Positions 3,648 through 22,512 of a stretch of 32,000 nt of DNA are shown piece by piece. The notes below the pieces were generated by a model. That model was not told the DNA's origin and did no database searches. It saw nothing but the letters and a program-made list of their open reading frames with translations. This DNA comes from Candidatus Nealsonbacteria bacterium (GTDB lineage: Bacteria; Patescibacteriota; Minisyncoccia; Minisyncoccales; MHMH01), in the NCBI GenBank assembly GCA_043813805.1, contig JBDRKR010000018.1, forward strand, positions 3,289 to 35,288, given 5' to 3'. Made by a program: the position numbers and the translations under genes. The first letter of the stretch is position 1, and each line of letters opens with the position of its first letter.

Positions 3648-3878
3648 ATGCTATCAGAAATTAAAGAATTTGTAAAGTCTCATCAAGCCGATATAATATT
3701 AGTCATCGGTGTTGTCTTGATTTCCCTGCTTTCTTTCGCGATGGGTTATATTTTAGCTAAAAATCAGGAGAAAACGCCTTTAAAATTCGAACAATATGAA
3801 ACCGCAAAATACAGCTATTATCGGAGCGGGGATAACCGGTCTTTATCTTGCCTGGAAGCTTTCGGCGGCGGGGCATAA
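3648..3878 (+). CDS. Small hypothetical membrane protein (one predicted TM helix)
   Basis: ATG at 3648; the track start at 3630 is a TTG that overlaps the rpmA start. Hydrophobic IILVIGVVLISLLSFAMGYILA. The 3' 83 nt overlap the next gene out of frame, so the tail or the whole call is uncertain. Confidence 0.35.
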   Translation: MLSEIKEFVKSHQADIILVIGVVLISLLSFAMGYILAKNQEKTPLKFEQYETAKYSYYRSGDNRSLSCLEAFGGGA

Positions 3879-4734
3879 GGTGACCGTTTTCGAAAAAAGA
3901 CCAAGCATCGGCAAAGAGGCCTGTTCCGGTCTTTTTTCTGAAAGGCTTTTGAGTTTTGTGCCCCAAAGCCAAGCTTTGATCCAAAATCGGATTGAATCAG
4001 TTCTGATACATTTTCCCAAAAAGACCGTTAAGGTTAAGTTTACGAAACCTTTTTTACTGATGAGCCATGCCGAATTGGACAGATTAGTTGCCGGATTGGC
4101 TGAGAAGGCCGGAGCAAAAATTGTTCTGCAAAGTCCGATTGATGTTATGCCTCAAGGATTTGATCAAATTATCGGTTGCGACGGCGCCAGTTCCGCTACC
4201 AGAAAAAGCTTAGGCATGAAAGATCCTGATTTACGATTGGGGATTCGGGGATTTGCCGCTTTGCGAGATACCTCAAACTATGTTGAAACATGGGCTGTGA
4301 AAAACGGCTTTATTTGGAAAATTCCCCGGGGCCAGGAAACGGAATACGGCGTAATTTCAGAGTTAAAGAGCGCTCGTCCGCTTTTTGAAGAATTCCTGAC
4401 AAAAAATAATATCCCGATAGAAAGAACGGCTTCGGCTTTAATTCCGCAAGGATTGATTATTCCCAGAAGCGATTCGGTTACTCTTTGCGGCGATGCCGCG
4501 GGACTTTGCAAGCCCTGGTCGGGCGGGGGAGTGATCTGGGGATTAGTCGCTTCTTCAATACTCTTGAAAGATTTCCCCGATTTAGTAAAATATCGGCATG
4601 ATGTTAAAAGATACTTTTTACCCAAAATCGCTTTGTCTAAAATAGCTACGAAAATGGCTTATTGTCTCGGATTTAATACCCCATACTTATTACCTAAAAA
4701 TCTCGAAATCGAGAGCGATTTTTTACTGCGATAG
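3796..4734 (+). CDS. FAD-dependent oxidoreductase, geranylgeranyl reductase family
   Basis: N-terminal dinucleotide fold IIGAGITGLYLAWKLSAAGHKVTVFEKR. IIGCDGASSATRKSLG (DG..S..R) and CGDAAG motifs are typical of GGR-type flavoproteins. At 312 aa it is short for the family. Confidence 0.75.
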   Translation: MKPQNTAIIGAGITGLYLAWKLSAAGHKVTVFEKRPSIGKEACSGLFSERLLSFVPQSQALIQNRIESVLIHFPKKTVKVKFTKPFLLMSHAELDRLVAGLAEKAGAKIVLQSPIDVMPQGFDQIIGCDGASSATRKSLGMKDPDLRLGIRGFAALRDTSNYVETWAVKNGFIWKIPRGQETEYGVISELKSARPLFEEFLTKNNIPIERTASALIPQGLIIPRSDSVTLCGDAAGLCKPWSGGGVIWGLVASSILLKDFPDLVKYRHDVKRYFLPKIALSKIATKMAYCLGFNTPYLLPKNLEIESDFLLR

Positions 4735-4765: not shown

Positions 4766-5464
4766 ATGACGTCTCAAACAAAAAATATTCCGTATCACCT
4801 GGGCATTATTATCGATGGCAATCGGAGATGGGCCAAAGAGAGGGGATTGCCGACTTTAATCGGCCATCGCAAGGGATTGAATAGGGTTAAACAGGTATTG
4901 GGCTGGGCTAAGAATCGAGGGATTAAGATTTTGACCCTTTTTGTGTTTTCAACCGAAAATTGGGAACGTTCAGAATCCGAAGTTAACTATCTGATGAGAT
5001 TGCTCCGGCAGGGGCTCAATGATTTTAAGAGAAATATCAAGAAAATCAATAAAGACGGGATTAGAATAAAAATAATCGGGCAGAAGGAGAAAGTTCCCGC
5101 AGGTTTGCATAAAATCATTCATGAACTTGAAGAGCTCACTCAAAACAACAAAGAAATGACGGTTAATATCGCTTTGAGTTACGGCGGCAGGGCGGAAATC
5201 GCCTCGGCCATTAAAAACATAATTAAGAAAAAGATTTCTCCCGACGAAATCACCGAAAAAACCATCTCCGAAAATCTTTGGACATCCGACGTGGACTTGC
5301 TTATCAGAACAGGCAAAGAACAGCGCATCTCTAATTTTTTAATTTGGCAGTCGGCTTATGCCGAATTGTATTTTTCGGAAAAATACTGGCCCGACTTCAC
5401 CGAAGAAGATTTAGATAAAGCTTTGGACGATTTTGCCGCGCGAAATCGTAGACACGGCAAATGA
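4766..5464 (+). CDS. uppS: Undecaprenyl (isoprenyl) diphosphate synthase, cis-prenyltransferase
   Basis: HLGIIIDGNRRWAKERGLP, TLFVFSTENWERS, LLIRTGKEQRISNFLIWQSAYAELYF and the C-terminal RNRRHG are all UPPS hallmarks. Confidence 0.93.
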   Translation: MTSQTKNIPYHLGIIIDGNRRWAKERGLPTLIGHRKGLNRVKQVLGWAKNRGIKILTLFVFSTENWERSESEVNYLMRLLRQGLNDFKRNIKKINKDGIRIKIIGQKEKVPAGLHKIIHELEELTQNNKEMTVNIALSYGGRAEIASAIKNIIKKKISPDEITEKTISENLWTSDVDLLIRTGKEQRISNFLIWQSAYAELYFSEKYWPDFTEEDLDKALDDFAARNRRHGK

Positions 5465-6162
5465 GAATTAATATGCAAATTCTGCCTACCATCACCACTA
5501 TTACTCCCGGTCAATGGCGCCAGAAACTCAAGGAGATCAAAGAACTTAAATTAAAAGAAGTTGCGGTTTTCCCGACGTGTTTGGATGAAAAAGAAAGAAA
5601 AGAACTTTTTTCATTGCTTGAAGAAACCGACATCAAAAGGATCCCTCTGGTTCACTTAAGGAGCGACATGGCCTTGAGCGAGCTGGATTATCTGGTCAGG
5701 GTTTTTAAGACGGAAGCTTTTAATATACATACCGGGCGCGAATACCCGCCGCTCAAAGATTATGGCTCGTACCGAAAAATTATTTATATCGAGAATACAT
5801 TCGAACCTTTTGACGAAGACGAAATTAAGGAATTCGGGGGAATTTGCCTGGATTTCGCCCATTTGGAAAACGACCGGCTGTTCCGCAAAGAAGTTTACAA
5901 ACACAATATCAAGATTATCGAAAAATATCCCCGTGGCTGTAATCATATCAGCGGATCCAAAGATTTCGTTTTTTTAAATAAGGGATCCCATTACCGCGAT
6001 TCCGCACACCCCCACTTTTTAAAAAGCTTATCCGAGCTTGACTATTTACAGCGATATCCGTTAAACTATTTTAGTACGCTCATTGCTTTAGAACTTGAAA
6101 ATACCATTACAGAGCAGCTAAAAACCAAAGAATATTTAACAGCGATGTTTAATGTACTATGA
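5461..6162 (+). CDS. Uncharacterised protein, endonuclease IV / xylose-isomerase-like TIM-barrel metal-site pattern (paralogue A)
   Basis: Overlaps the uppS stop by 4 nt (ATGA). Clear paralogue of 18091-18765. Shared blocks are W..KLKEI, AVF, KER, VHLR.D, FKT..FNIH, Y[IL]E..F, GG.C.D.AH, CNH, [DH]xH and IALE. Confidence 0.6.
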   Translation: MRINMQILPTITTITPGQWRQKLKEIKELKLKEVAVFPTCLDEKERKELFSLLEETDIKRIPLVHLRSDMALSELDYLVRVFKTEAFNIHTGREYPPLKDYGSYRKIIYIENTFEPFDEDEIKEFGGICLDFAHLENDRLFRKEVYKHNIKIIEKYPRGCNHISGSKDFVFLNKGSHYRDSAHPHFLKSLSELDYLQRYPLNYFSTLIALELENTITEQLKTKEYLTAMFNVL

Positions 6163-6827
6163 AAATTAAATTATTAGTCGTAGCAATCACCGTGATTATC
6201 TTAACCGTTCTGAGCATAATGGGATTTTATGTTTATAAGCAAATAATCAAACCCGAAGCCAAAGAAAACGTTCCCGCGACAACCGGAGAAGCAGAGCCGG
6301 AAAGTCCGTCAAACGGCGGGGAGGAGATTATTGGAGAAACCGTTTTATTAAAAGACGATTTTGAAATAACGCTGCCGCCGGGTTGGCAGGAAGCAACCAC
6401 CCCTCCTGAAGGAATTTTAGCTATGGCTATTGATGGAAAAGAAGATATTTCTGAGGGTGTTTTCCAAAAGCTTGATTTCAGGACCAATTTCTCCGTCAAG
6501 AGAGACGACATGAAAAAATACGCGAATTTTAATAATTTAGGAGACTATATCACCAGCATTAAAACTTCTTTGGTTCAAATGGTGCCCGGCATCAGTTTTG
6601 TCCAGGAAGAGCAAAAAGTGATTGACGGCCGCCGGGCTATTTTGATTGAGTGCTCGAGCCGCCAGGAAGAAGCCGACTTTAAAACACTATTGGTCTTCGT
6701 TGAAGACAGCGACAGCATCGTTTACGCAATTTCCTTCAATACCTTCCAAAGTTCCTGGGCAAGCTACCGAGACACGTTTTATCGGATTGCCGAGAGCTTT
6801 AAATTAAAATACAAAATCGAGCTTTAA
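6159..6827 (+). CDS. Hypothetical membrane-anchored protein
   Basis: 4-nt overlap with the preceding gene. N-terminal TM helix LLVVAITVIILTVLSIMGFYVY is followed by an acidic linker and a soluble domain. No family recognised. Confidence 0.6.
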   Translation: MKIKLLVVAITVIILTVLSIMGFYVYKQIIKPEAKENVPATTGEAEPESPSNGGEEIIGETVLLKDDFEITLPPGWQEATTPPEGILAMAIDGKEDISEGVFQKLDFRTNFSVKRDDMKKYANFNNLGDYITSIKTSLVQMVPGISFVQEEQKVIDGRRAILIECSSRQEEADFKTLLVFVEDSDSIVYAISFNTFQSSWASYRDTFYRIAESFKLKYKIEL

Positions 6828-8119
6828 GATTTTTTAATAGAATGGAAAAAGTCGTAAACGATTTTTCCATTTTTATTAAGAAAGCCCGCTTTCATGTCAT
6901 ACATCGGGAAATTGGTGAAAACGGTGCCCGCCGTAATCGTCTTTTTGTAATTTTCTCCCTCATTGATTTCGTTGTGGAAAAACAGCCCGTTTTTCAGTTT
7001 CAGAAAATCAAGACGGTTTTCCAGCCCGATTCTTTTTATTTTGCCTTTTTTTAATTCGAAAAATCCGCCCGGAATCAATTTCGTTATCGTGTGCTCGGGC
7101 AATTCAATGCACATCTGGGCGCCTTGGAATGAGTTTTCAGGCAAGGAATCAGGTTTCGCCGCCGGATAATTTTTCTGGCAGAAGTGATTTAAAAGCAGGC
7201 GCATGAAATCGGTACGGCCGTGCAATTCTTCCGTGGCGATGATTTGAGGGGTAGCCGCGGTGATTCTCGGGTTGCATTCAAGAAAGAAGATTTGATCGTT
7301 TTCCGACAGAATAAAATCTAAATTAAACATGCCCGTCAATCCTTCCTGTTTTATTTTTTCGGCTATCCTGATTAAGTCCCGGGTTATTTTTTCATAAAGT
7401 TCTTTTGTAAAAAACTGCGAAGGCAGCCACTGGATGCCGATAAAAAGACCTAAGGGCCCGCCGTTCGGATTTTTTAAAAAGCATTGCCGGTTCAGGGCTG
7501 AAAGGCAGACGTTTTCTTGATCAACAAAAAGAGAAGCGCCGCAAGCCATTCCTTTTTGATACTCGCGGGCCAAGAGCGGCAGATTAAGCGTTTTGAGTAT
7601 TTTTTGGAAAGATTTTTCCGAGTCGGCAAAAAACGTTCCTTCGCCTCCGGTGGATTTAGGAATTTGAACAACCGTTTGGAGAAAGGGCAGCAGGGCTTTT
7701 TTAGACCTCAGGATCGCGCTTTTGACCGAGGGGATTTTTATCTTTTTCAGGAAACTATCGAAAAACAGCTTGTCCTCGAATTTTTCGGCAAGCTGATAAG
7801 ACGGAGAGAGAATAGCGATGCCGCTTTCTTTACTCCATTCTTTGAGGAACTTCGTGGAGTTCCTTAAAAAGAGGCAATTTATCTGATATTTTTTGAGTTG
7901 CGGGGAGAGATTGGAGTTTTTAAAAACGTCCTCGCCTTTCAGTTCCGAGAAATTAATGCCCTTTTTTTTGAGCTTAATGGGAATAATGTTAGTCAAACGG
8001 AGCTCAGTTTGGGCTATTCTCATTTCTTCGGAACCTTCGAGGCAAATAGCATAAATTTCATATGTTTTCTCTTGGGAAAACACCAAGTCCAAACTTCTTA
8101 AGAAGTAAGCGACTTTCAT
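6824..8119 (-). CDS. ATP-grasp domain ligase
   Basis: C-terminal ATP-grasp core GMFNLDFILSENDQIFFLECNPRITAATP (E-x-N Mg/ATP motif). A Gly-rich PKSTGGEGTFF loop is present. Length is 431 aa. Confidence 0.75.
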   Translation of the reverse strand: MKVAYFLRSLDLVFSQEKTYEIYAICLEGSEEMRIAQTELRLTNIIPIKLKKKGINFSELKGEDVFKNSNLSPQLKKYQINCLFLRNSTKFLKEWSKESGIAILSPSYQLAEKFEDKLFFDSFLKKIKIPSVKSAILRSKKALLPFLQTVVQIPKSTGGEGTFFADSEKSFQKILKTLNLPLLAREYQKGMACGASLFVDQENVCLSALNRQCFLKNPNGGPLGLFIGIQWLPSQFFTKELYEKITRDLIRIAEKIKQEGLTGMFNLDFILSENDQIFFLECNPRITAATPQIIATEELHGRTDFMRLLLNHFCQKNYPAAKPDSLPENSFQGAQMCIELPEHTITKLIPGGFFELKKGKIKRIGLENRLDFLKLKNGLFFHNEINEGENYKKTITAGTVFTNFPMYDMKAGFLNKNGKIVYDFFHSIKKS

Positions 8120-8125
8120 GGAGGG

Positions 8126-9244
8126 TCAGTTTTTTTGGTACTTAAAGAGGGGAACGGCTTCAAACCAGCGGCTTTTCCAAGTGTAGTTGTTCTGCAGGAA
8201 GTCGATCTTTTTGAAACCCAATTTAATCGCATCGTCGATTTCGATAAGATTGAAGTAGTTGCCGATGCCCGGGAATTCGGCTACGTTGTAGCCGCATTTG
8301 ACGGCGAAATAAGTATTATTGAATAAAGCAATCAAATCCACGCCGGCGATTTTACCGTTGATTTTAATGGTGATCATGCGGTTTTTGTAAGAACTGCCGC
8401 CAAGATTGATGACTTGTCTGAAAGCTTCGATTCTCCTCGGATCTTGCCAGTCGGGCACCTGGTTTTTATCTGTCAGTCTTTTCTTGGATATTTCCACCAA
8501 ACTGTCAAAGTCGGCGGAATTATCGATGATAATCTCGGGATTTTGCCTTTCAATTCTGCGCCGGTCTTTTCTCATACTGTGGCGTTCGTTCTTTTTAAGA
8601 GTGGCCAAATAATCCTCGTGGTTGGAGAATTTTTCGAGATGCAAAACATATTTAGCCGAATCTGGCTCAAAAGCAACAGTTTTACCTAAAAGAAAAGCTG
8701 ATTTGGGCGAGATGGCGTTAAGTAACAGGGGAGAAGGAGCGGCTTCAAGCAAAATAGGGATGTATTGAGGGTCTTTGCTGAAAAAAACAACTTCTTCCTG
8801 CCAATCGCTGCCAAACCACTCGTATCTTTTTTCATCCGGATTGTACCATAAGGGCAGTAAAGCCAGATTTTCTTTGTCGTTTTTTAATAAGATGAAATGG
8901 GGCCTGTAATGATAGCCCAGATAGAAAGCGAACCGGAATTCCCAAGTATCAAACAGGGTTTTGGGGCTGGCTAATTCTTGCCACAATCGATGACAGTGCT
9001 CAATCTCCGAAATAATCTCTACATCCATATCTTCCGGCAAAGCCAGCCTGCCGAAGGACAGTGGGTCAACAAAAAAAGAACCTAAATGTTGCAGAGGTTC
9101 CCTTTGCCCAACCTCGGTTCTATTATCAGGAGGTTCAATCTCGTCCTTATTTATAATATTAGAGAAACCAGAGTTATTCGAAGATTCGAAGTTACTCATA
9201 GTAAGCTTAGTGCTCAATTTTGCACTATGCTGACAGGATAGCAT
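8126..9244 (-). CDS. GNAT-fold acyl/peptidyl transferase, CelD/BioF2/FemAB-like (Acetyltransf_6 type)
   Basis: Central KKNERHSMRKDRRRIERQ block, then the family-typical tail KINGKIAGVDLIALFNNTYFAVKCGYN...YTWKSRW. The true start may be ATG 9199 (MSNFESS). The 9244 ATG sits inside a TTGACA-N17-TATCCT promoter-like sequence. Confidence 0.65.
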   Translation of the reverse strand: MLSCQHSAKLSTKLTMSNFESSNNSGFSNIINKDEIEPPDNRTEVGQREPLQHLGSFFVDPLSFGRLALPEDMDVEIISEIEHCHRLWQELASPKTLFDTWEFRFAFYLGYHYRPHFILLKNDKENLALLPLWYNPDEKRYEWFGSDWQEEVVFFSKDPQYIPILLEAAPSPLLLNAISPKSAFLLGKTVAFEPDSAKYVLHLEKFSNHEDYLATLKKNERHSMRKDRRRIERQNPEIIIDNSADFDSLVEISKKRLTDKNQVPDWQDPRRIEAFRQVINLGGSSYKNRMITIKINGKIAGVDLIALFNNTYFAVKCGYNVAEFPGIGNYFNLIEIDDAIKLGFKKIDFLQNNYTWKSRWFEAVPLFKYQKN

Positions 9245-15842: not shown

Positions 15843-15871
15843 TACGCGAAAGAGCTAAACCTCTTTCATCT
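15843..15871. repeat. Copy of the 29-nt palindromic hairpin element (murG stop codon lies inside it)
   Basis: Minus strand AGATGAAAGAGG-TTTAG-CTCTTTCGCGTA. The first 15 nt are identical to the copies at 19844 and 21394. Confidence 0.6.
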
Positions 15872-16993
15872 CGTCAAATAGTTGATGATATAGCCGGCGA
15901 TGATTTTGGCTGAATCGATTCGCGAAAACTCTTTGGCCCGCTGGGACATTTTTTGAAGCTCATCGGGATTCGCGAACAAGTACTTTATTTTTTCCAAAAA
16001 GAACCGCGGCGTTAAGTTTGCTTCTTCCATCACTACGGCCGTTTTATTCTGGGCGTAAGCGTAAGCGTTTTTCAATTGATGGTCTTGCGCCGAAGACGAC
16101 AAAGGAATTAAAATGCTCGGTTTTTGGCATGCTGCGATTTCAAAAATACTGCCGCCCCCTGCTCGACTGATCACCAGATCGCACGCTTTGAAGGCGTCCC
16201 TCAGTTCAACTTCTTTCAAAAAGCCGATGGGGTGATAACGTCGGGCAAGTTTTTCATCAACAACCATCACCTTGGCTTCGGCTTTCAGCTGCTCTATATT
16301 TTTACTGCCCGTTTGGTGGATGATTTCAAAGTCGGTCAAAAGCTGGGGCAAAATTGCGAGCAGCAAGTCATTGACGGCTTGAGCCCCTTGAGAGCCGCCC
16401 AGTACCAGAATAATGGGTTTTTCTCCGGTTAAATCAAAGTATTCTTTGGCCTTTTCTGCATTGCCGTTCAAAAGTTCAACGCGCATGGGGTTGCCCACGG
16501 CAATCATTTTTTCTTCTGAAAAGTATTCGGTTTGAGCTATGGGGAAGGCGACGAAAATCTGCCGGGTGAATTTACTCATAAACTTATTGGCCAATCCCGG
16601 AGCCACGTCTGATTCGTGAAGGATAATCGGCACCTGTAAGACTTGGCCGGTCAAAACCGTAGCAAGCGAGCCGTAACCCCCCTTGCTGAAAATTAAATCC
16701 GGAGCCAAAGTAAAAACATAAAAGAACGATTGGAAAAATCCCAGAGGCATTTTGAATAAAACATCAATAATATTTTGCAGGATATTTTTCCAGCCCAAAT
16801 ATCTCCTGATTTTGCCGGCTAAAATCCATTTTATTCTGATGCCTTCCTGTGAAAGGATAATTTCTCCGAAATCATCTTTCGGTCCGGCATAAAAGAATTC
16901 GGCGTCAGAGCCCATTTTTCTCAATTCTCTGACGATGGCGATAATCGGGAAGATGTGTCCGGCGGTGCCTCCGCCGGTAAAAAGTATTTTCAT
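15866..16993 (-). CDS. murG: UDP-GlcNAc:lipid I N-acetylglucosaminyltransferase
   Basis: MKILFTGGGTAGHIFPIIAI N-terminus and GGSQGA, typical of MurG. dcw context. Confidence 0.93.
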   Translation of the reverse strand: MKILFTGGGTAGHIFPIIAIVRELRKMGSDAEFFYAGPKDDFGEIILSQEGIRIKWILAGKIRRYLGWKNILQNIIDVLFKMPLGFFQSFFYVFTLAPDLIFSKGGYGSLATVLTGQVLQVPIILHESDVAPGLANKFMSKFTRQIFVAFPIAQTEYFSEEKMIAVGNPMRVELLNGNAEKAKEYFDLTGEKPIILVLGGSQGAQAVNDLLLAILPQLLTDFEIIHQTGSKNIEQLKAEAKVMVVDEKLARRYHPIGFLKEVELRDAFKACDLVISRAGGGSIFEIAACQKPSILIPLSSSAQDHQLKNAYAYAQNKTAVVMEEANLTPRFFLEKIKYLFANPDELQKMSQRAKEFSRIDSAKIIAGYIINYLTR

Positions 16994-18084
16994 GATTTGG
17001 TGTGTTTAGAAATATTAAGCAAAATTCCAACGCCGACCAGCTCTGTCACGAGAGCCGACCCGCCGTAGCTGACAAACGGCAAGGGAACGCCGGTAAGCGG
17101 CAGAATTTTCAGCATGGCGCCGATGTTGATAAAGGCCTGGACGCTCAACCAGCTGATAATACCTAAAGCGGTCAGTTTCTCAAAATTGTTTTTGGCATTT
17201 TTGGCGATTTTAAATCCTAACCAGGTAATAATTAAAAATAGCGAGATGATCACCAGGCAGCCGACAAAGCCCGTTTCTTCGGCAAAGACGGCGAAAATCG
17301 AATCGGCCATCGGTTCGGGCAAATAGCCGAACTTCTGGACGCTCATCCCCAAGCCCGTGCCGAAAATTCCTCCCGATCCCACGGCGATCAGCGCTTGTTT
17401 GGTTTGCAAACCGACACCCATCGGATCTTTATCCAGATTGAAAAGAACCAAAAACCTGTCTAAACGGTAAGAGGCGGTTTTAACAAAAACAACCAAGCCG
17501 GCCATTCCCCCCAAAAGAATGATGGCCGCATGTTTTAAGGGCGTACCGGCCAGAAAATACATTAAAAATCCGGTAGTCATAATTATCCCAAGAGTTCCCA
17601 CGTCCGGCTGAAAGAATAAGAGCAACGTGATTGTTCCGATGATTGCCAAAAAAGCCGCTAAAGTTTTTGTAAATTCTTTTTTAGTTCTTTCCGTCTGCGC
17701 GGACAACAGCGAAGCCAGATAAAGAATAAAGATTAATTTTAATGATTCAGCCGGCTGAAAGGTGGTGAAGCCTAAATTGAGCCAACTTTTGGCATTGCCC
17801 AATTTAATGCCGATCACTGGCACAAAAACCAGCACCATCAGAAAAAGATTGATTAAAAGCAGGAGCGGCACCCATTTTTTTAAGCGCATCAGGGGCGCTT
17901 TGTAAGCGATAAATCCGAAGATTACTCCCGGTATCAGGCCCAAAAAAAGATGGCGGATAAGATAAAAAACTGAAGAACCGAATTTCTGCTGGGCGATAGC
18001 CGCCGTGACGCTCGTAATAATCGAAATGCCCAATAACACTAAACAAGCCACCGCGGCGATTAAAAAATAATCAGACCTTTTCAT
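16990..18084 (-). CDS. ftsW: SEDS family peptidoglycan glycosyltransferase (FtsW by position)
   Basis: Ten-TM-type protein with QPAESLK, GLGMSVQKFGYLPEPMADSIFAV and PLPFVSYGGSAL motifs. Located between murD and murG. Confidence 0.9.
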   Translation of the reverse strand: MKRSDYFLIAAVACLVLLGISIITSVTAAIAQQKFGSSVFYLIRHLFLGLIPGVIFGFIAYKAPLMRLKKWVPLLLLINLFLMVLVFVPVIGIKLGNAKSWLNLGFTTFQPAESLKLIFILYLASLLSAQTERTKKEFTKTLAAFLAIIGTITLLLFFQPDVGTLGIIMTTGFLMYFLAGTPLKHAAIILLGGMAGLVVFVKTASYRLDRFLVLFNLDKDPMGVGLQTKQALIAVGSGGIFGTGLGMSVQKFGYLPEPMADSIFAVFAEETGFVGCLVIISLFLIITWLGFKIAKNAKNNFEKLTALGIISWLSVQAFINIGAMLKILPLTGVPLPFVSYGGSALVTELVGVGILLNISKHTKS

Positions 18085-18090
18085 ACGTTT

Positions 18091-18765
18091 TCATTTTAAC
18101 AGATATTTTTCAAGTAAGCGACTGATGTGCTCTCTGAATCCTATTTGCTCTTTAATGGAGTTATAAACTTCAAGGGCAATTATTTTCCCGAAGGCGTATT
18201 GGGGCAAAGTGGTTAAATAATCAAAAGAACCTAAGTCTTTAACGAGATGAATGTCTTTCATCTCCGAGGGGTCGTAACCGTTAAGATGATTGCACGCGAT
18301 TTCTGCCCGGTTTTTTTTGAAAAAGATGTAAGACGCCTCTTCCGTTCCTCGGCTTATAGCCGCTTTAAAGTGCGCCAGGTCCACGCAAAATCCGCCGATT
18401 CTTCTTACTTTGACGTCTTTGGCGATCTCATCGTTAAAATTCATTTCGAGATAGAGCTTGTCCCAGTAACCTTTCCACTGATTGAGTTTTTTAAAATGGT
18501 CTTCATGGATGTTAAAATACCTGGTTTTGAACCGGTCGATGAAAAACTTCATTTCTTCTTTCCGAACATCGTCCCGTAAATGCACAAAAGGCACGGTTTT
18601 TACCGTTGATTTCAAAAGCAGACGATAAAAATTATCCCTTTCTTTTTTATCAAAAGATTCCAGAAATACGGCTATTTCGCCTATTTTTCTGGCGTTGATT
18701 TCCTTGAGTTTGTTTGCCCAATCAAAACTTTCTTGGCCGGTGATGCTTAAGAGAATTTTAGTCAT
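18091..18765 (-). CDS. Uncharacterised protein, endonuclease IV / xylose-isomerase-like TIM-barrel metal-site pattern (paralogue B)
   Basis: Paralogue of 5461-6162. Overlaps the murD stop by 8 nt (ATGACTAA) and ends 6 nt before ftsW. Conserved VHLRDD, FNIH, YLEMNF, GGFCVDLAH, CNHLNG, DIH, IALE. Confidence 0.6.
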   Translation of the reverse strand: MTKILLSITGQESFDWANKLKEINARKIGEIAVFLESFDKKERDNFYRLLLKSTVKTVPFVHLRDDVRKEEMKFFIDRFKTRYFNIHEDHFKKLNQWKGYWDKLYLEMNFNDEIAKDVKVRRIGGFCVDLAHFKAAISRGTEEASYIFFKKNRAEIACNHLNGYDPSEMKDIHLVKDLGSFDYLTTLPQYAFGKIIALEVYNSIKEQIGFREHISRLLEKYLLK

Positions 18766-19990
18766 GGTATTTTTCCACCATTTTTTTAAATATATTCCCT
18801 CTTTCAGCGTAATCCTTAAAAATGCCGAAGCTCGGCGAGGCCGGCGACATCAGGCATATTTTATCTTTGCCGGTATGTTGGTACGCCAGCTTTACCGCCG
18901 TCGCCATATTTTTTACAAAAAAATATTGGAAATTGGAAATTGGAAATTGGAAATTTTCGATGGCTTTAATGATTCGTGCACCGGTAGTTGGAAATAAAAT
19001 AAGCGTTTTTATATCGCTCTTGAGTAGTCTTTTTGCTAAGCCATCGAACGATAGTCCCCTGTCAAATCCGCCCAAGATTAAGGTTTGAACTTCGTTTCCG
19101 AGAAAGTCCAGAGCTTCGATGGTTGTTTCAGGTATGGTCGATAAAGAATCGTTGTAAAACTCAATTCCTTTGAATTTGCCGACATACTCTAAGCGGTGCG
19201 GCAGGAATTCAAACTTTTTTAACTCGGGCACTTTGAATATCTTGGCCACGGCTTTGGCCGCCGCGATATCGAGTTCGTAATACTTTCCTTTAATGGGGGC
19301 TTTCTTTGCTTTTGATGTTTTGGCTATTTTTCCGACCTCTTTGTCTTGGGAATTATATATCAGATAATCGTTTTTGGTTTGGAATTTCGCGATGTTAGAT
19401 TTGGCTCCTGCGTATTCTTTGAAATTGCGGTAATAGTCCAAGTGCTCCGGGTAGATGTTCAGCAAAATGGCAATTTTAGGACTTTTTTTCAAGTTATAGA
19501 GTTGGTGCGCCGACAATTCGTAGACAAAAATTGATTGAGGTTCAGCCTCGTTTAAAAAGGAAAGGACGGGCTGGCCGATGTTGCCTATCAAATGGGCTTT
19601 GAGGCCCGCTTTTTTCAGCGTTTGGTAAATAAAAGAGGCGGTGGTGCTTTTACCCTTGGTGCCCGTCACCCCGATGATTGTCCCGGGGCAGTTATCAAAA
19701 AAAATATCAGTTTGCGTGATTATCTTGTCGAGGCTCGACTCCGGCAATATTTTAAAAGGAATGCCCGGCGTTTTAATAATTACATCATAATCCTTAATCG
19801 AGCTGAGATAGCTCTTCCCCAAATGCCATTTTATGTTTTTATCAGATGAAAGAGGTTTGACCTCTGTCATATCGGCGATGCCCAGAACTTTTTTTGGGAA
19901 CAATTTACGCAGAAACTTAAAAGTGTCTTGGCCCTCCCGGCCAAAACCAAGTATCAATATCTTTTTATCTTTTAACTCGTTTGATTCCAT
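18758..19990 (-). CDS. murD: UDP-N-acetylmuramoyl-L-alanine--glutamate ligase
   Basis: KILILGFGREG Rossmann start, GVTGTKGKSTT P-loop, C-terminal LMSPASPSFGIFKDYAERG. Confidence 0.92.
   Translation of the reverse strand: MESNELKDKKILILGFGREGQDTFKFLRKLFPKKVLGIADMTEVKPLSSDKNIKWHLGKSYLSSIKDYDVIIKTPGIPFKILPESSLDKIITQTDIFFDNCPGTIIGVTGTKGKSTTASFIYQTLKKAGLKAHLIGNIGQPVLSFLNEAEPQSIFVYELSAHQLYNLKKSPKIAILLNIYPEHLDYYRNFKEYAGAKSNIAKFQTKNDYLIYNSQDKEVGKIAKTSKAKKAPIKGKYYELDIAAAKAVAKIFKVPELKKFEFLPHRLEYVGKFKGIEFYNDSLSTIPETTIEALDFLGNEVQTLILGGFDRGLSFDGLAKRLLKSDIKTLILFPTTGARIIKAIENFQFPISNFQYFFVKNMATAVKLAYQHTGKDKICLMSPASPSFGIFKDYAERGNIFKKMVEKYHD
18925..18955. repeat. Heptanucleotide tandem repeat (ATTGGAA x 4.4) inside murD
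   Basis: Reads attggaaattggaaattggaaattggaaatt. It is translated on the minus strand as ENFQFPISNFQY. Confidence 0.9.
19844..19872. repeat. Copy of the 29-nt palindromic hairpin element inside the murD coding sequence
   Basis: AGATGAAAGAGG-TTTGA-CCTCTGTCATAT. It matches 21394-21422 at 26 of 29 positions, with the first 20 nt identical. Encodes DMTEVKPLSSD of MurD. Confidence 0.8.
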
Positions 19991-21323
19991 CGTATTTCTG
20001 CAAAAGATAGGGGAGGCTTTGGCCTCCTTCTTTTTTCGCCTTAGCCAAACTTAAACGCAAAGCTTCGTTGGTTTCTCGATAAGTGCCAACGCATTCAAAG
20101 GGTTTGTGTTTTCCCTGCCCAAGTAAGCTTTTTAGAGTAGACAGTAAACTTTTTTCTTCAAAGAGGTCTTTACCGAAAATCACCAGAAGTTGTTTTCTGG
20201 TTAAAAAAGGATAAAGCATCAGGTAAACAAAAAGGCACTTAGGGCAATAGCCGCACCATTTTTCCCCGGTTTTCAATCCCTTATTGCAGCTGGAAAAAGC
20301 CGGAAAATACTTCGGGTATTTCGCGAACATTTTGGCGATCTGCAGTTCCGTGTATTTTCTTAGATAACTGAAATAGTTTATGTTTTTCGCCAAATATTTT
20401 TGGCTATAAATCCTAAACATCTTTTCAAACTCGGATGTTTTCGCCCATTGGTGATTGATGGATTTCCCAAAATATATCACATTGCCTTCATTGGCGCTTT
20501 TTTCGTTGGAGAAAGCAATGTTTTTGTAATCAAATAAAACGGCGCAAAAAACCGATAAGAACGAAAGAACGGCGGTAAAAGGAGTGTGGCCGTTAAGATA
20601 TCCCTTGGCGTTTAAAGTCAGAAGTCCTTGGTCGATTTTTCTTTCTACTATTATCGGCGATTTAAGGCCGGCTATTTTGACCGTTTTTTTAGCGGCACGG
20701 GAAGGATTAAGCAAAAAGCAGTTTATTCTCTCATCTTTCTCTTTTAAAAGATTTAAAGTAACAATAGAGTCTTTTCCTCCGCCGACAGGTATCAGATAGC
20801 CTTCTTTCAGCTCAAGATCGGTTGTGCCTAAAGCTGGAGCTGAGATGCTCGGGTTAACGCTGATTTTCAGGAAATCAGGTTCCCGCCAGTCAATTTTATT
20901 CTCGTAGAAAAATTGACCCATGCTCTTGATTATCAGGTTGCGCCACCAGGCCGCCTGATCTTTATCTGGAGCTCCGGCTCTGATAATAATTTCAGGCGAG
21001 CATGTTGTTTTCCAGTAGCTTGGTATTTCCATCAGTCCCAGATGAAAAACGAAGTTGTTTAAGGCTTTTTTATCTAAATGCGAAGCATTCAAGGTTTCTG
21101 TCGAAGACAGGGCTCTTATTTTTCCCAGGCGGCCTTCGGGAATGTTTTTAATGACGATCCTTGGCTTGAAGACAATATCGGGCTCAATTTTAAAGCAGAA
21201 GGAGATTTTCAAATTGCCACTTTTTATACGGTAAGAGTACTTTTGGTAAATGAACGCCGGGTATTTTTTGCGCAAAGTATCCAGTTTCCTATGAAGTGAA
21301 AACGCAGTTTTCATATACCCCAT
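19965..21323 (-). CDS. PP-loop ATP-pyrophosphatase-like protein in the dcw cluster (candidate MurL-type UDP-MurNAc-L-Ala-L-Glu epimerase)
   Basis: IPVGGGKDS PP-loop-like motif and C-terminal CGYCPKC Cys motif. 452 aa. Overlaps the murD start by 26 nt. The start may be the second ATG at 21314, because the first ATG overlaps a TATAAT box. Confidence 0.55.
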   Translation of the reverse strand: MGYMKTAFSLHRKLDTLRKKYPAFIYQKYSYRIKSGNLKISFCFKIEPDIVFKPRIVIKNIPEGRLGKIRALSSTETLNASHLDKKALNNFVFHLGLMEIPSYWKTTCSPEIIIRAGAPDKDQAAWWRNLIIKSMGQFFYENKIDWREPDFLKISVNPSISAPALGTTDLELKEGYLIPVGGGKDSIVTLNLLKEKDERINCFLLNPSRAAKKTVKIAGLKSPIIVERKIDQGLLTLNAKGYLNGHTPFTAVLSFLSVFCAVLFDYKNIAFSNEKSANEGNVIYFGKSINHQWAKTSEFEKMFRIYSQKYLAKNINYFSYLRKYTELQIAKMFAKYPKYFPAFSSCNKGLKTGEKWCGYCPKCLFVYLMLYPFLTRKQLLVIFGKDLFEEKSLLSTLKSLLGQGKHKPFECVGTYRETNEALRLSLAKAKKEGGQSLPYLLQKYDGIKRVKR

Positions 21324-21438: not shown

Positions 21439-22512
21439 TTAACCTAAAAGGCGGATGCCTATGCCGATGATGGCGCAAACTACGCCGATGATCCAAAATC
21501 TCATTGTGACTTGGTGGGCGGGCCAGCCCTTGGCCTCGAAGTGATGATGGATGGGTGCGGCTAAAAGTATTTTTTTGTGGCGAAATTTTTTGGAAAGCAA
21601 TTGCAAAATAACCGAGCCCGATTCCAGAACCAGCAAGAACCCGATAATGGGCAATACCAAAACAGAGTCAGTCAAAAAAGCCACGACAGTCAAGGCCGCG
21701 CAAAGACCCATCATGCCGGTTTCCCCCATATAAAAGCGGGCCGGCGGAATATTGAACCACAAAAAAGCCAATAGCGCTCCTAAAATCACGGCGCAGAAAG
21801 CGGCGACATTAATTTGTCCCAGAAATAAAGCGATGCCGGCAAACGCTCCGAAAATGGCGGCGAAAGTTCCGCCGGCGAGGCCGTCCAGGCCGTCAATCAC
21901 TCCGCCCGAATAAACAGCCATCATTACGATAATAAACAAGGGCAGATACAAAATGCCTATTTCGAAATCTCCCATGCCCGGTACGTGCAAACTTGACCAC
22001 CCAAGTTTGTAATAGAACCACCAGGCTCCGACGGCGCCAATGACGCCCATGAGCATAATTCTTTGTCCCAAAGTTAATCCTTTCGCGATGTATTTGCCCC
22101 GGCCCAAGACCTGCAAGAAATCATCTAAAAATCCCACTAAAGCGGCCGAAATTAAAGCAAAAAATGGCAGCCAGGTCTGTCCCCGATTAAGAAAGTTAAG
22201 CTTTTCCAGCCACCAAATGTTGATGCCTGTTTTGTGGATCGCATAAAAAAAGAGAGCCAAAAATAAAGGAACCAGCCAAATTAAGAGGCCCCCGAATCTC
22301 GGAATATGGGTTTCGCCTTCAGAGTGGAACTTTTGGAAGTACGTTAAGTCTTTGCCGTCAATCGCCTGGGTCCTCACAGTCTTTCGCCAAAGCTGGTATT
22401 TATATAAAACTTTGGTCAAAAACGGAGTTAATGCAAAAGCAATTAAAAAACTTAACACTCCCAAGGTGAATATTTTAATGACGTCAAGGGCTGCTTCGGG
22501 TAAGTAGAGCAT
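21439..22512 (-). CDS. mraY: Phospho-N-acetylmuramoyl-pentapeptide transferase
   Basis: Polytopic membrane protein with DDFLQV, GGVIDGLDGLAGG and APIHHHFE motifs. Confidence 0.93.
   Translation of the reverse strand: MLYLPEAALDVIKIFTLGVLSFLIAFALTPFLTKVLYKYQLWRKTVRTQAIDGKDLTYFQKFHSEGETHIPRFGGLLIWLVPLFLALFFYAIHKTGINIWWLEKLNFLNRGQTWLPFFALISAALVGFLDDFLQVLGRGKYIAKGLTLGQRIMLMGVIGAVGAWWFYYKLGWSSLHVPGMGDFEIGILYLPLFIIVMMAVYSGGVIDGLDGLAGGTFAAIFGAFAGIALFLGQINVAAFCAVILGALLAFLWFNIPPARFYMGETGMMGLCAALTVVAFLTDSVLVLPIIGFLLVLESGSVILQLLSKKFRHKKILLAAPIHHHFEAKGWPAHQVTMRFWIIGVVCAIIGIGIRLLG

Follow-up and report, generated by a model that had tools for sequence, protein, structure and literature searches.

Endonuclease IV-like barrel proteins of Patescibacteria as candidates for a missing cell-envelope step

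Endonuclease IV (Endo IV, Nfo) is the described enzyme that comes closest to the proteins discussed here. It belongs to PF01261 (AP_endonuc_2), and its structures include 1QTW, 1QUM, 2X7V and 4HNO. In Escherichia coli Endo IV the metals are held by H69, H109, E145, D179, H182, H216, D229, H231 and E261, and the enzyme inserts Arg37 and Tyr72 into the DNA. A barrel that leans towards Endo IV is also found in an isoprenoid setting: EboE of the ebo operon has Endo IV as its nearest SUPERFAMILY family and is encoded together with a prenyltransferase and a phosphoester hydrolase (PMC5133447). The conversion of undecaprenyl diphosphate (C55-PP) to undecaprenyl monophosphate (C55-P) is catalyzed by BacA/UppP and PAP2, which are integral membrane proteins with active sites facing outward, and the cytoplasmic C55-PP phosphatase is still unidentified according to a 2025 study of E. 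coli (PMC12401180). Here we describe two paralogous genes in a stretch of 32,000 nucleotides from a Candidatus Nealsonbacteria bacterium (assembly GCA_043813805.1, contig JBDRKR010000018.1, positions 3,289 to 35,288; the whole stretch is called the window): X1 (18091..18765, minus strand), an open reading frame (ORF) whose translation, P0001, has 224 amino acids, and X2 (5461..6162, plus strand), which encodes P0002 of 233 amino acids and in which Met5 (ATG at 5473) can be read as a possible alternative start. Both encode compact Endo IV-like metalloproteins of the triosephosphate isomerase (TIM) barrel type, and we consider them candidates for a missing cell-envelope step.

Our analysis shows that X1 and X2 belong to an uncharacterised family of genuine genes (family X), so far found only in Patescibacteria (the Candidate Phyla Radiation, CPR). 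An exhaustive profile search gathered 471 clusters at 50% identity, nearly all of them single-domain proteins of 215-250 amino acids; the homologues are all annotated as hypothetical proteins and the named hosts are Nealsonbacteria, Portnoybacteria or an unclassified bacterium. Neither P0001 nor P0002 has a Pfam match even at an expectation value (E) of <= 10, nor a match in NCBIfam, and nothing usable was returned by searches of the PDB sequences, Pfam and NCBIfam made with the two proteins singly and with both family profiles. No description of family X, or of a soluble TIM-barrel C55-PP phosphatase, was found in the literature. The two window proteins are 32% identical over 226 columns (BLASTP, E 3e-35) and about 35% identical over the N-terminal half as counted on the same alignment, which agrees with the paralogy and the 35-40% that had been estimated by eye in an earlier reading of the letters alone (the sequence-only reading); they are the only two copies in the window genome (686 kb, 94% complete). 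The tree splits the family into a long-branched, basic X1 clade and a larger, mostly acidic X2 clade, with 128 of 150 family representatives nearer to P0002 than to P0001. The median isoelectric point (pI) is 8.8 in the X1 clade, 5.9 in the X2 clade and 6.3 in the whole family, compared with 8.0 in CPR Nfo. Two fusions were met among X2 proteins, one with a C-terminal GrpB domain (P0138, 407 amino acids) and one with a PrmC/HemK-like methyltransferase bearing an NPPY motif (L029, 6001-7320, plus strand); being single cases they are uninformative and were dropped as a functional clue.

Judged on the alignment of 141 diverse homologues with a mean identity of 30%, the ladder of His, Glu and Asp motifs that the sequence-only reading had proposed as metal ligands is real and far beyond chance. 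In P0001 numbering H62, H87, E107, H132 and E199 are invariant, and D129, H160, H173, C127, N202, Q207 and R43 are conserved in >=90% of the homologues. Eight of the ligands are kept in 58-61 of 61 sequences and the remaining one, D171, which is sited in a variable loop, in 46 of 61.

The AlphaFold (AF2) models of X1 (predicted local distance difference test, pLDDT, 91.5; predicted template-modelling score, pTM, 0.90) and X2 (pLDDT 94.4, pTM 0.91) are both eight-stranded beta/alpha (TIM) barrels, in which the conserved residues are placed where strands 3-8 have their C-terminal ends, or beside these ends, and also in the hairpin that follows strand 7. E107, D129, H160 and E199 stand at or beside the ends of strands 5, 6, 7 and 8, so that the core Glu/Asp/His/Glu site of xylose isomerase-like barrels is present. 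The best-ranked Foldseek matches of X1 were Endo IV (4hno, 1qum, 2x7v), MbnB (7tcr), UlaE, xylose isomerase and UVDE, while X2 retrieved more generic TIM barrels, including a sugar isomerase, MbnB, an AP-endonuclease-2 protein and Endo IV; the lists also hold UlaE 3cqj, xylose isomerase 2gyi, sugar isomerase 3kws and UVDE 3tc3. Over the two lists the Endo IV matches have E 2e-4 to 6e-3 and template-modelling (TM) scores of 0.47-0.56. The TM-scores of the best-ranked X1 matches are low (0.5-0.57), and MbnB structures have the highest of all matches (7tcr 0.57; 7fc0 0.54-0.56). No solved structure is closely related to family X.

One could argue from these scores that family X consists of multinuclear non-haem iron oxidases of the MbnB/DUF692 type, which would modify a peptide or a small molecule. 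Enzymes of this type have a similar ligand set, and the fold similarity of X to MbnB/DUF692 (7TCR, 7FC0, 7DZ9) is comparable to, or slightly above, its similarity to Endo IV. However, among the 58 loci surveyed no recurrent partner protein and no precursor-peptide gene or small ORF was seen beside X, DUF692 is outside the 25 Pfam families most often matched by family X members, and the direct profile match described below goes to Nfo. The host genomes are of the small, fermentative symbiont type, in which an oxygen-dependent enzyme would be unexpected. We consider an oxidase of this kind very improbable.

The profile comparison places family X next to Endo IV. The most frequent weak Pfam match in the family is PF01261 (9 of 141, best E 1.7e-4); P0001 and P0002 do not reach its gathering threshold, and a whole-genome PF01261 search misses both genes. 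When the 141-sequence profile was aligned by hhalign with ten canonical Nfo sequences (278-281 amino acids) from CPR genomes of the same order, the match had 87.8% probability and E 3.3e-6, whereas 14 other PF01261 subgroups from the same genomes reached <=22.8%. The deeper Nfo alignment was needed for this result, as shallower ones scored 9.5% and 36.6%. In this alignment, read in the numbering of E. coli Endo IV, H62 of P0001 falls on H69, H87 on H109, E107 on E145, D129 and H132 on D179 and H182, H160 on H216, and D171 and H173 on D229 and H231; these eight of the nine metal ligands are aligned exactly, and the ninth, E199, falls within one residue of E261 in a stretch of low confidence. 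The fold and the ligands named in the sequence-only reading are borne out by the AF2 barrels, the Foldseek matches, the Nfo profile match and this ligand map.

Endo IV and family X share the TIM barrel, the order of the nine ligands and the motifs G-x-C-x-D-x-x-H and H-L-N...D-x-H, and Endo IV is both the best profile-profile match of X and the top Foldseek result for P0001. In contrast, X is approximately 55 residues shorter, its TM-scores to Endo IV are 0.5-0.56, its members are mostly acidic and its genomic contexts are mostly those of the envelope and not of repair. In the profile alignment the Arg37 loop of Nfo (8 residues, TLSRTWRV) and the Tyr72 loop (6 residues, PYLVNL) are gaps in X. 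It is thus strongly supported by the alignments that family X keeps the complete predicted three-metal ligand set of Endo IV without the loops that flip the DNA. X is not Endo IV proper, as it fails the Pfam threshold and has no DNA-recognition loops; the order that carries X also has canonical Nfo (278-281 amino acids), and some genomes have both.

The same data bear on the possibility that X is a sugar or nucleotide-sugar isomerase or epimerase, which would employ metal-stabilised enediolate chemistry, as do xylose isomerase, the ketose 3-epimerases and UlaE, to tailor an envelope-glycan precursor. The profile probability obtained with Nfo far exceeds that of every non-Nfo PF01261 subgroup tried, which argues against such chemistry. 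Known sugar epimerases of the TIM-barrel fold need just the E-D-H-E site, whereas family X has invariant H62 and H87 and the H132/D171/H173 set, which correspond to metal sites 1 and 3 of Endo IV. The genomic contexts, discussed below, offer this possibility some support.

EboE offers a precedent, by analogy, for an Endo IV-leaning barrel in an isoprenoid operon (PMC5133447). Like X, it is a divergent xylose isomerase-like TIM barrel with marginal PF01261 matches; unlike X, it comes from other phyla and is associated with a prenyltransferase of the UbiA type and not of the UppS type, the comparison being one of descriptions.

Gene neighbourhoods were surveyed at 58 loci by tblastn, neighbour clustering and Pfam. 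In the window, X2 follows an FAD-dependent reductase (3796..4734, plus strand; Pfam NAD_binding_8, DAO and FAD_binding_3) and uppS, which encodes the cis-prenyltransferase (4766..5464, plus strand; Pfam Prenyltransf, 2.4e-80), and precedes a PsbP-like ORF (6159..6827, plus strand; Pfam PsbP, 9e-06). The uppS stop TGA and the X2 start ATG overlap by 4 nucleotides (ATGA), and at its other end X2 shares 4 nucleotides of its stop with the start of the PsbP-like ORF, a junction that the sequence-only reading does not mention. X2 stands immediately after UppS in three genomes of the window's taxonomic family and 2.6 kb away from it in one other. UppS-X2 pairs occur in the window, L045 and L047, and in L040 the FAD reductase is followed by X2 directly. 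In L043 the operon runs from the FAD reductase through a trans-polyprenyl synthetase (polyprenyl_synt) and UppS to X2, a reductase gene of the window type precedes UppS and/or X2 in L038, L040 and L043, and L045 and L047 have PsbP-like homologues on the downstream side of X2. The arrangement of reductase, (prenyl synthetase) and uppS points to a carrier-lipid operon, whose product may be a partly saturated polyprenyl phosphate. An acylphosphatase gene (PF00708; L045, 2715-2993, plus strand) was observed directly after X2, and a member of the same BLAST cluster is located two genes upstream of X2 in L028 (932-1219, plus strand).

Other X2 genes are found in a block of 12 loci with the order SerRS, alpha/beta hydrolase, membrane-anchored Mur ligase, DegT, (pilin), YbaB, X2, (beta-propeller), FemAB and FtsQ-type POTRA protein. 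A third context is that of the rml genes: in L066 X2 is flanked by rmlB and rmlD, in L069 it is located upstream of rmlD, and in L073 it follows a DedA/VTT gene and is convergent with rmlD. The X2 genes of these three loci come from three distant taxonomic families and group together on the tree. The L066 cluster (rmlA-rmlC-...-rmlB-X2-rmlD) also holds a gene for a "23S rRNA intervening sequence protein" (PF05635; 4422-4835, plus strand). X1 has contexts of its own: a CofD/YvcK gene, a GlmU-like nucleotidyl/acetyltransferase gene and X1 follow one another at 3 loci from different taxonomic families, and a PAP2 gene lies 2-3 genes from X1 in two loci.

Counted over the 106 proteins at positions +-1 of X, DegT occurs 6 times, RmlB/D-type proteins 4, FemAB 4, UppS 3 and nucleotidyltransferases 3, while none of these is among the families with >=2 members in the 148 proteins at positions +-5/6, which served as local background. 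Contexts of the envelope, nucleoside-diphosphate (NDP) sugar and polyprenyl kinds turn up repeatedly, in several lineages, and exceed this background. The number of independent events is approximately eight or nine, below the raw counts, because kin share contexts. The rml neighbours, together with the DegT aminotransferases and sugar nucleotidyltransferases that are among the commonest neighbours, are what a sugar isomerase would predict, and a sugar-nucleotide conversion was one of the candidates named in the sequence-only reading. In L066, however, the cluster already has its own RmlC cupin, by which X as a replacement for RmlC is ruled out. Weighed with the Nfo match and the ligand set, we find a sugar isomerase or epimerase improbable.

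We tentatively favour, at somewhat less than an even chance, the reading that the members of family X are phosphoesterases that serve the synthesis of polyprenyl phosphate or envelope glycans and do not act on DNA. A substrate other than DNA is suggested because the DNA loops are deleted, the pI of the family is lower than that of Nfo and there is no complementarity with Nfo or Xth; the link to the envelope and to polyprenyl metabolism is drawn because UppS, Mur ligase-FemAB-FtsQ, YvcK-GlmU-like, rml and PAP2 neighbours recur. A water activated by three metals would hydrolyse a phosphate or pyrophosphate ester other than duplex DNA, and the substrate would most likely be an intermediate of polyprenyl-phosphate-dependent envelope-glycan synthesis. 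X2 is the last gene of an operon with the reductase, (prenyl synthase) and UppS, and its most specific candidate reaction would be a dephosphorylation at the cytoplasmic side, by which undecaprenyl-type diphosphate fresh from synthesis becomes the monophosphate; a phosphatase is the obvious missing activity of this operon. X1, which belongs to the older and more basic sister clade, may act on a different anionic substrate. It could be, then, that X2, and perhaps X1, is a soluble Endo IV-derived polyprenyl-diphosphate phosphatase of the cytoplasmic face, which would convert C55-PP coming straight from UppS to C55-P with no membrane crossing; this narrower proposal we hold to be unlikely. X proteins, like UppS itself, have no hydrophobic segment (none was found in P0001 or P0002, where the maximum 19-residue hydropathy is ~0.7). 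BacA/UppP and PAP2 catalyze the reaction proposed for X2, and PAP2 and DedA genes occur near some X genes, but X differs from these enzymes in its unrelated fold, its solubility, its want of BacA or PAP2 Pfam signatures and its want of complementarity with BacA. Should X turn out to be a C55-PP phosphatase, it would represent a new type, and a soluble one.

The closest relative of family X is nevertheless a repair enzyme, and X could be a stripped-down phosphodiesterase of DNA (or RNA) repair, that is, an apurinic/apyrimidinic (AP) endonuclease or a 3'-end-cleaning diesterase that would stand in for Endo IV in genomes without Nfo and Xth, its placement among envelope genes being an accident of very compact genomes. 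The nearest detectable homologue is genuine Nfo and the nine metal ligands are kept. The window genome has no PF01261 (Nfo-type) and no Xth (PF03372) match and has one HhH-GPD glycosylase, uracil-DNA glycosylase (UDG) giving a marginal match only. In L072, X1 and an AlkD-like DNA-alkylation-repair gene overlap by 4 nucleotides; in L068, X2 has MgsA on one side and a DnaQ-like exonuclease on the other; in L067 and L071, X2 is divergent from UvrD-like helicases; and YbaB is directly upstream of X in 6 loci. The X1 clade is basic, and the one pseudogenised X1 (L060) shares its genome, G168, with canonical Nfo. On the other hand, X has lost the loops of Arg37 and Tyr72, on which Endo IV depends to flip the lesion, the X2 clade is acidic, and at positions +-1 repair neighbours are fewer than envelope, NDP-sugar and polyprenyl neighbours.

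Gene content does not favour a repair role either. Among the 201 genomes of the window's order, Nfo-like or Xth genes are present in 15 of 47 X carriers and in 63 of 154 non-carriers, so that there is no anti-correlation, and X as a replacement for Nfo or Xth finds no complementarity to rest on. None of X, Nfo-like and Xth genes is present in 91 of the 154 non-carriers; therefore, a gap in AP endonucleases is common in this order and need not be compensated. We regard a repair function as less likely than the envelope reading but as a serious rival to it. The verdict of the sequence-only reading that DNA repair seems less likely was nonetheless not established, given that the closest homologue is a repair enzyme and repair neighbours exist at some loci.

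A number of observations speak against a phosphoesterase of envelope synthesis, and we gather them here. The nearest relative of X, Endo IV, works on DNA, the proteins of the X1 clade are basic, and repair-type neighbours occur in L067, L068, L071 and L072. The window genome has one PAP2 phosphatase, and BacA is not depleted among X carriers (27 of 47, compared with 52 of 154 non-carriers). The adjacency of UppS and X2 is restricted mainly to the window's own taxonomic family, and the 12-locus block from Mur ligase to FtsQ represents few independent events. Of the 201 genomes of the order, 154 have no member of family X, and neither have 391 of the 400 genomes sampled elsewhere in the phylum. 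Among the 16 X1 loci of the order, 15 do not show the murD-X1-ftsW arrangement of the window, and the sole other X1 adjacent to murD is a pseudogene (L060, 800-1480, minus strand; G168:C25) behind a MurL-MurD fusion, with a TGA at the codon of the invariant Trp16 and a C-terminal frameshift. Finally, overlapping or abutting genes are the norm in the window genome, for unrelated pairs too (S11 peptidase / aspS / histidine kinase; gltX / pyruvate-kinase-like); overlap alone is therefore weak evidence of a common function.

X1 is preceded by a murD-type Mur ligase gene (18758..19990, minus strand; Pfam Mur_ligase_M and Mur_ligase_C), whose stop is overlapped by the X1 ATG at 18765 by 8 nucleotides (ATGACTAA), and the X1 TGA ends at 18091, with the ATG of ftsW (16990..18084, minus strand; Pfam FTSW_RODA_SPOVE, 4.8e-95) beginning 6 nucleotides later, at 18084. 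Inspection of the DNA confirmed the ORFs and the junctions with murD, ftsW and uppS given in the sequence-only reading, and Pfam confirmed the neighbours. Its description of the genes as translationally coupled stands as far as the overlaps are real, and says little about function since tight packing is usual in this genome. The murD-X1-ftsW order, with MurL upstream, is retained in relatives of 70-83% identity and is not present in relatives at 58-64% identity, and on the tree the insertion is limited to a small terminal subclade. Strict conservation of the arrangement is ruled out by its absence at 58-64% identity and by the pseudogenisation of the only independent case, and we infer that X1 was placed between murD and ftsW by a recent event in a genus-level lineage. 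The further claim that wiring into lipid II operons implies an envelope step holds in part: the exact linkages are narrow and the family is present in about one quarter of the order, and other envelope contexts do recur.

The distribution sets a limit to any proposed role. Family X occurs in 47 of the 201 genomes of the order (37 of 151 genera), usually in one copy, and in 9 of 400 other genomes sampled across the phylum. It is an accessory and not a core family, and its step cannot be generally required; with about three quarters of the order's genomes lacking it, it cannot be a core lipid II enzyme. A mobile-element origin of this patchy distribution found no support, as tblastn gave no match in phage or plasmid collections. 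Nor does X replace BacA: no BacA match was found in the window genome and none of 6 sampled genomes of its taxonomic family has BacA, but over the order BacA is commoner in carriers, which rules this replacement out. X as an inorganic pyrophosphatase for the pyrophosphate released by UppS or nucleotidyltransferases was ruled out by the membrane H+-pyrophosphatase (H+-PPase), of which the window genome has one. This genome also has one GHMP kinase, and no match was found in it for family I pyrophosphatase, IspH or trans-prenyl synthase (PF00348).

The genes around X1 and X2 complete the picture of the window. On the minus strand with X1, murG (15866..16993; Pfam Glyco_transf_28 and Glyco_tran_28_C) adjoins ftsW, and mraY (21439..22512; Pfam Glycos_transf_4) is separated from murD by an ORF of 452 amino acids (19965..21323). 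No family of the local Pfam copy matches this ORF; where close relatives have its positional orthologue, that gene bears the precomputed domains PF26299 (MurL_N) and PF26298 (MurL_epimerase_C), which identify the window ORF as a MurL-like epimerase gene, and the window ORF matches by tblastn the MurL-MurD fusion of L060 (an 831-amino-acid ORF of genome G168). Because the orthologues of the adjoining ORF carry MurL domains, the window MurD is probably a MurD2-type L-Glu ligase that partners the MurL epimerase. On the opposite strand, just downstream of uppS and X2, an ATP-grasp ligase and a FemAB-like/Acetyltransf_6 protein are encoded (6824-9244, minus strand), possibly another pair that tailors the peptidoglycan peptide.

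The meaning of these findings depends on the substrate. If it belongs to envelope synthesis, the three-metal phosphoesterase machinery of Endo IV would have been re-used on a non-DNA substrate, and X would be a concrete, clonable candidate for the inner-face dephosphorylation of C55-PP, which was called unidentified in PMC12401180. Should X indeed be a C55-PP phosphatase, an essential step in building the bacterial envelope would gain a new class of enzymes, with CPR as its first known source. If X is a repair enzyme, a minimal enzyme of the AP endonuclease type would do without the canonical loops for DNA flipping, and the family would help to explain how abasic sites are handled in CPR genomes with no recognisable AP endonuclease. 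In either case, approximately 470 clusters of hypothetical proteins now have a fold and a hypothesis for their catalytic site.

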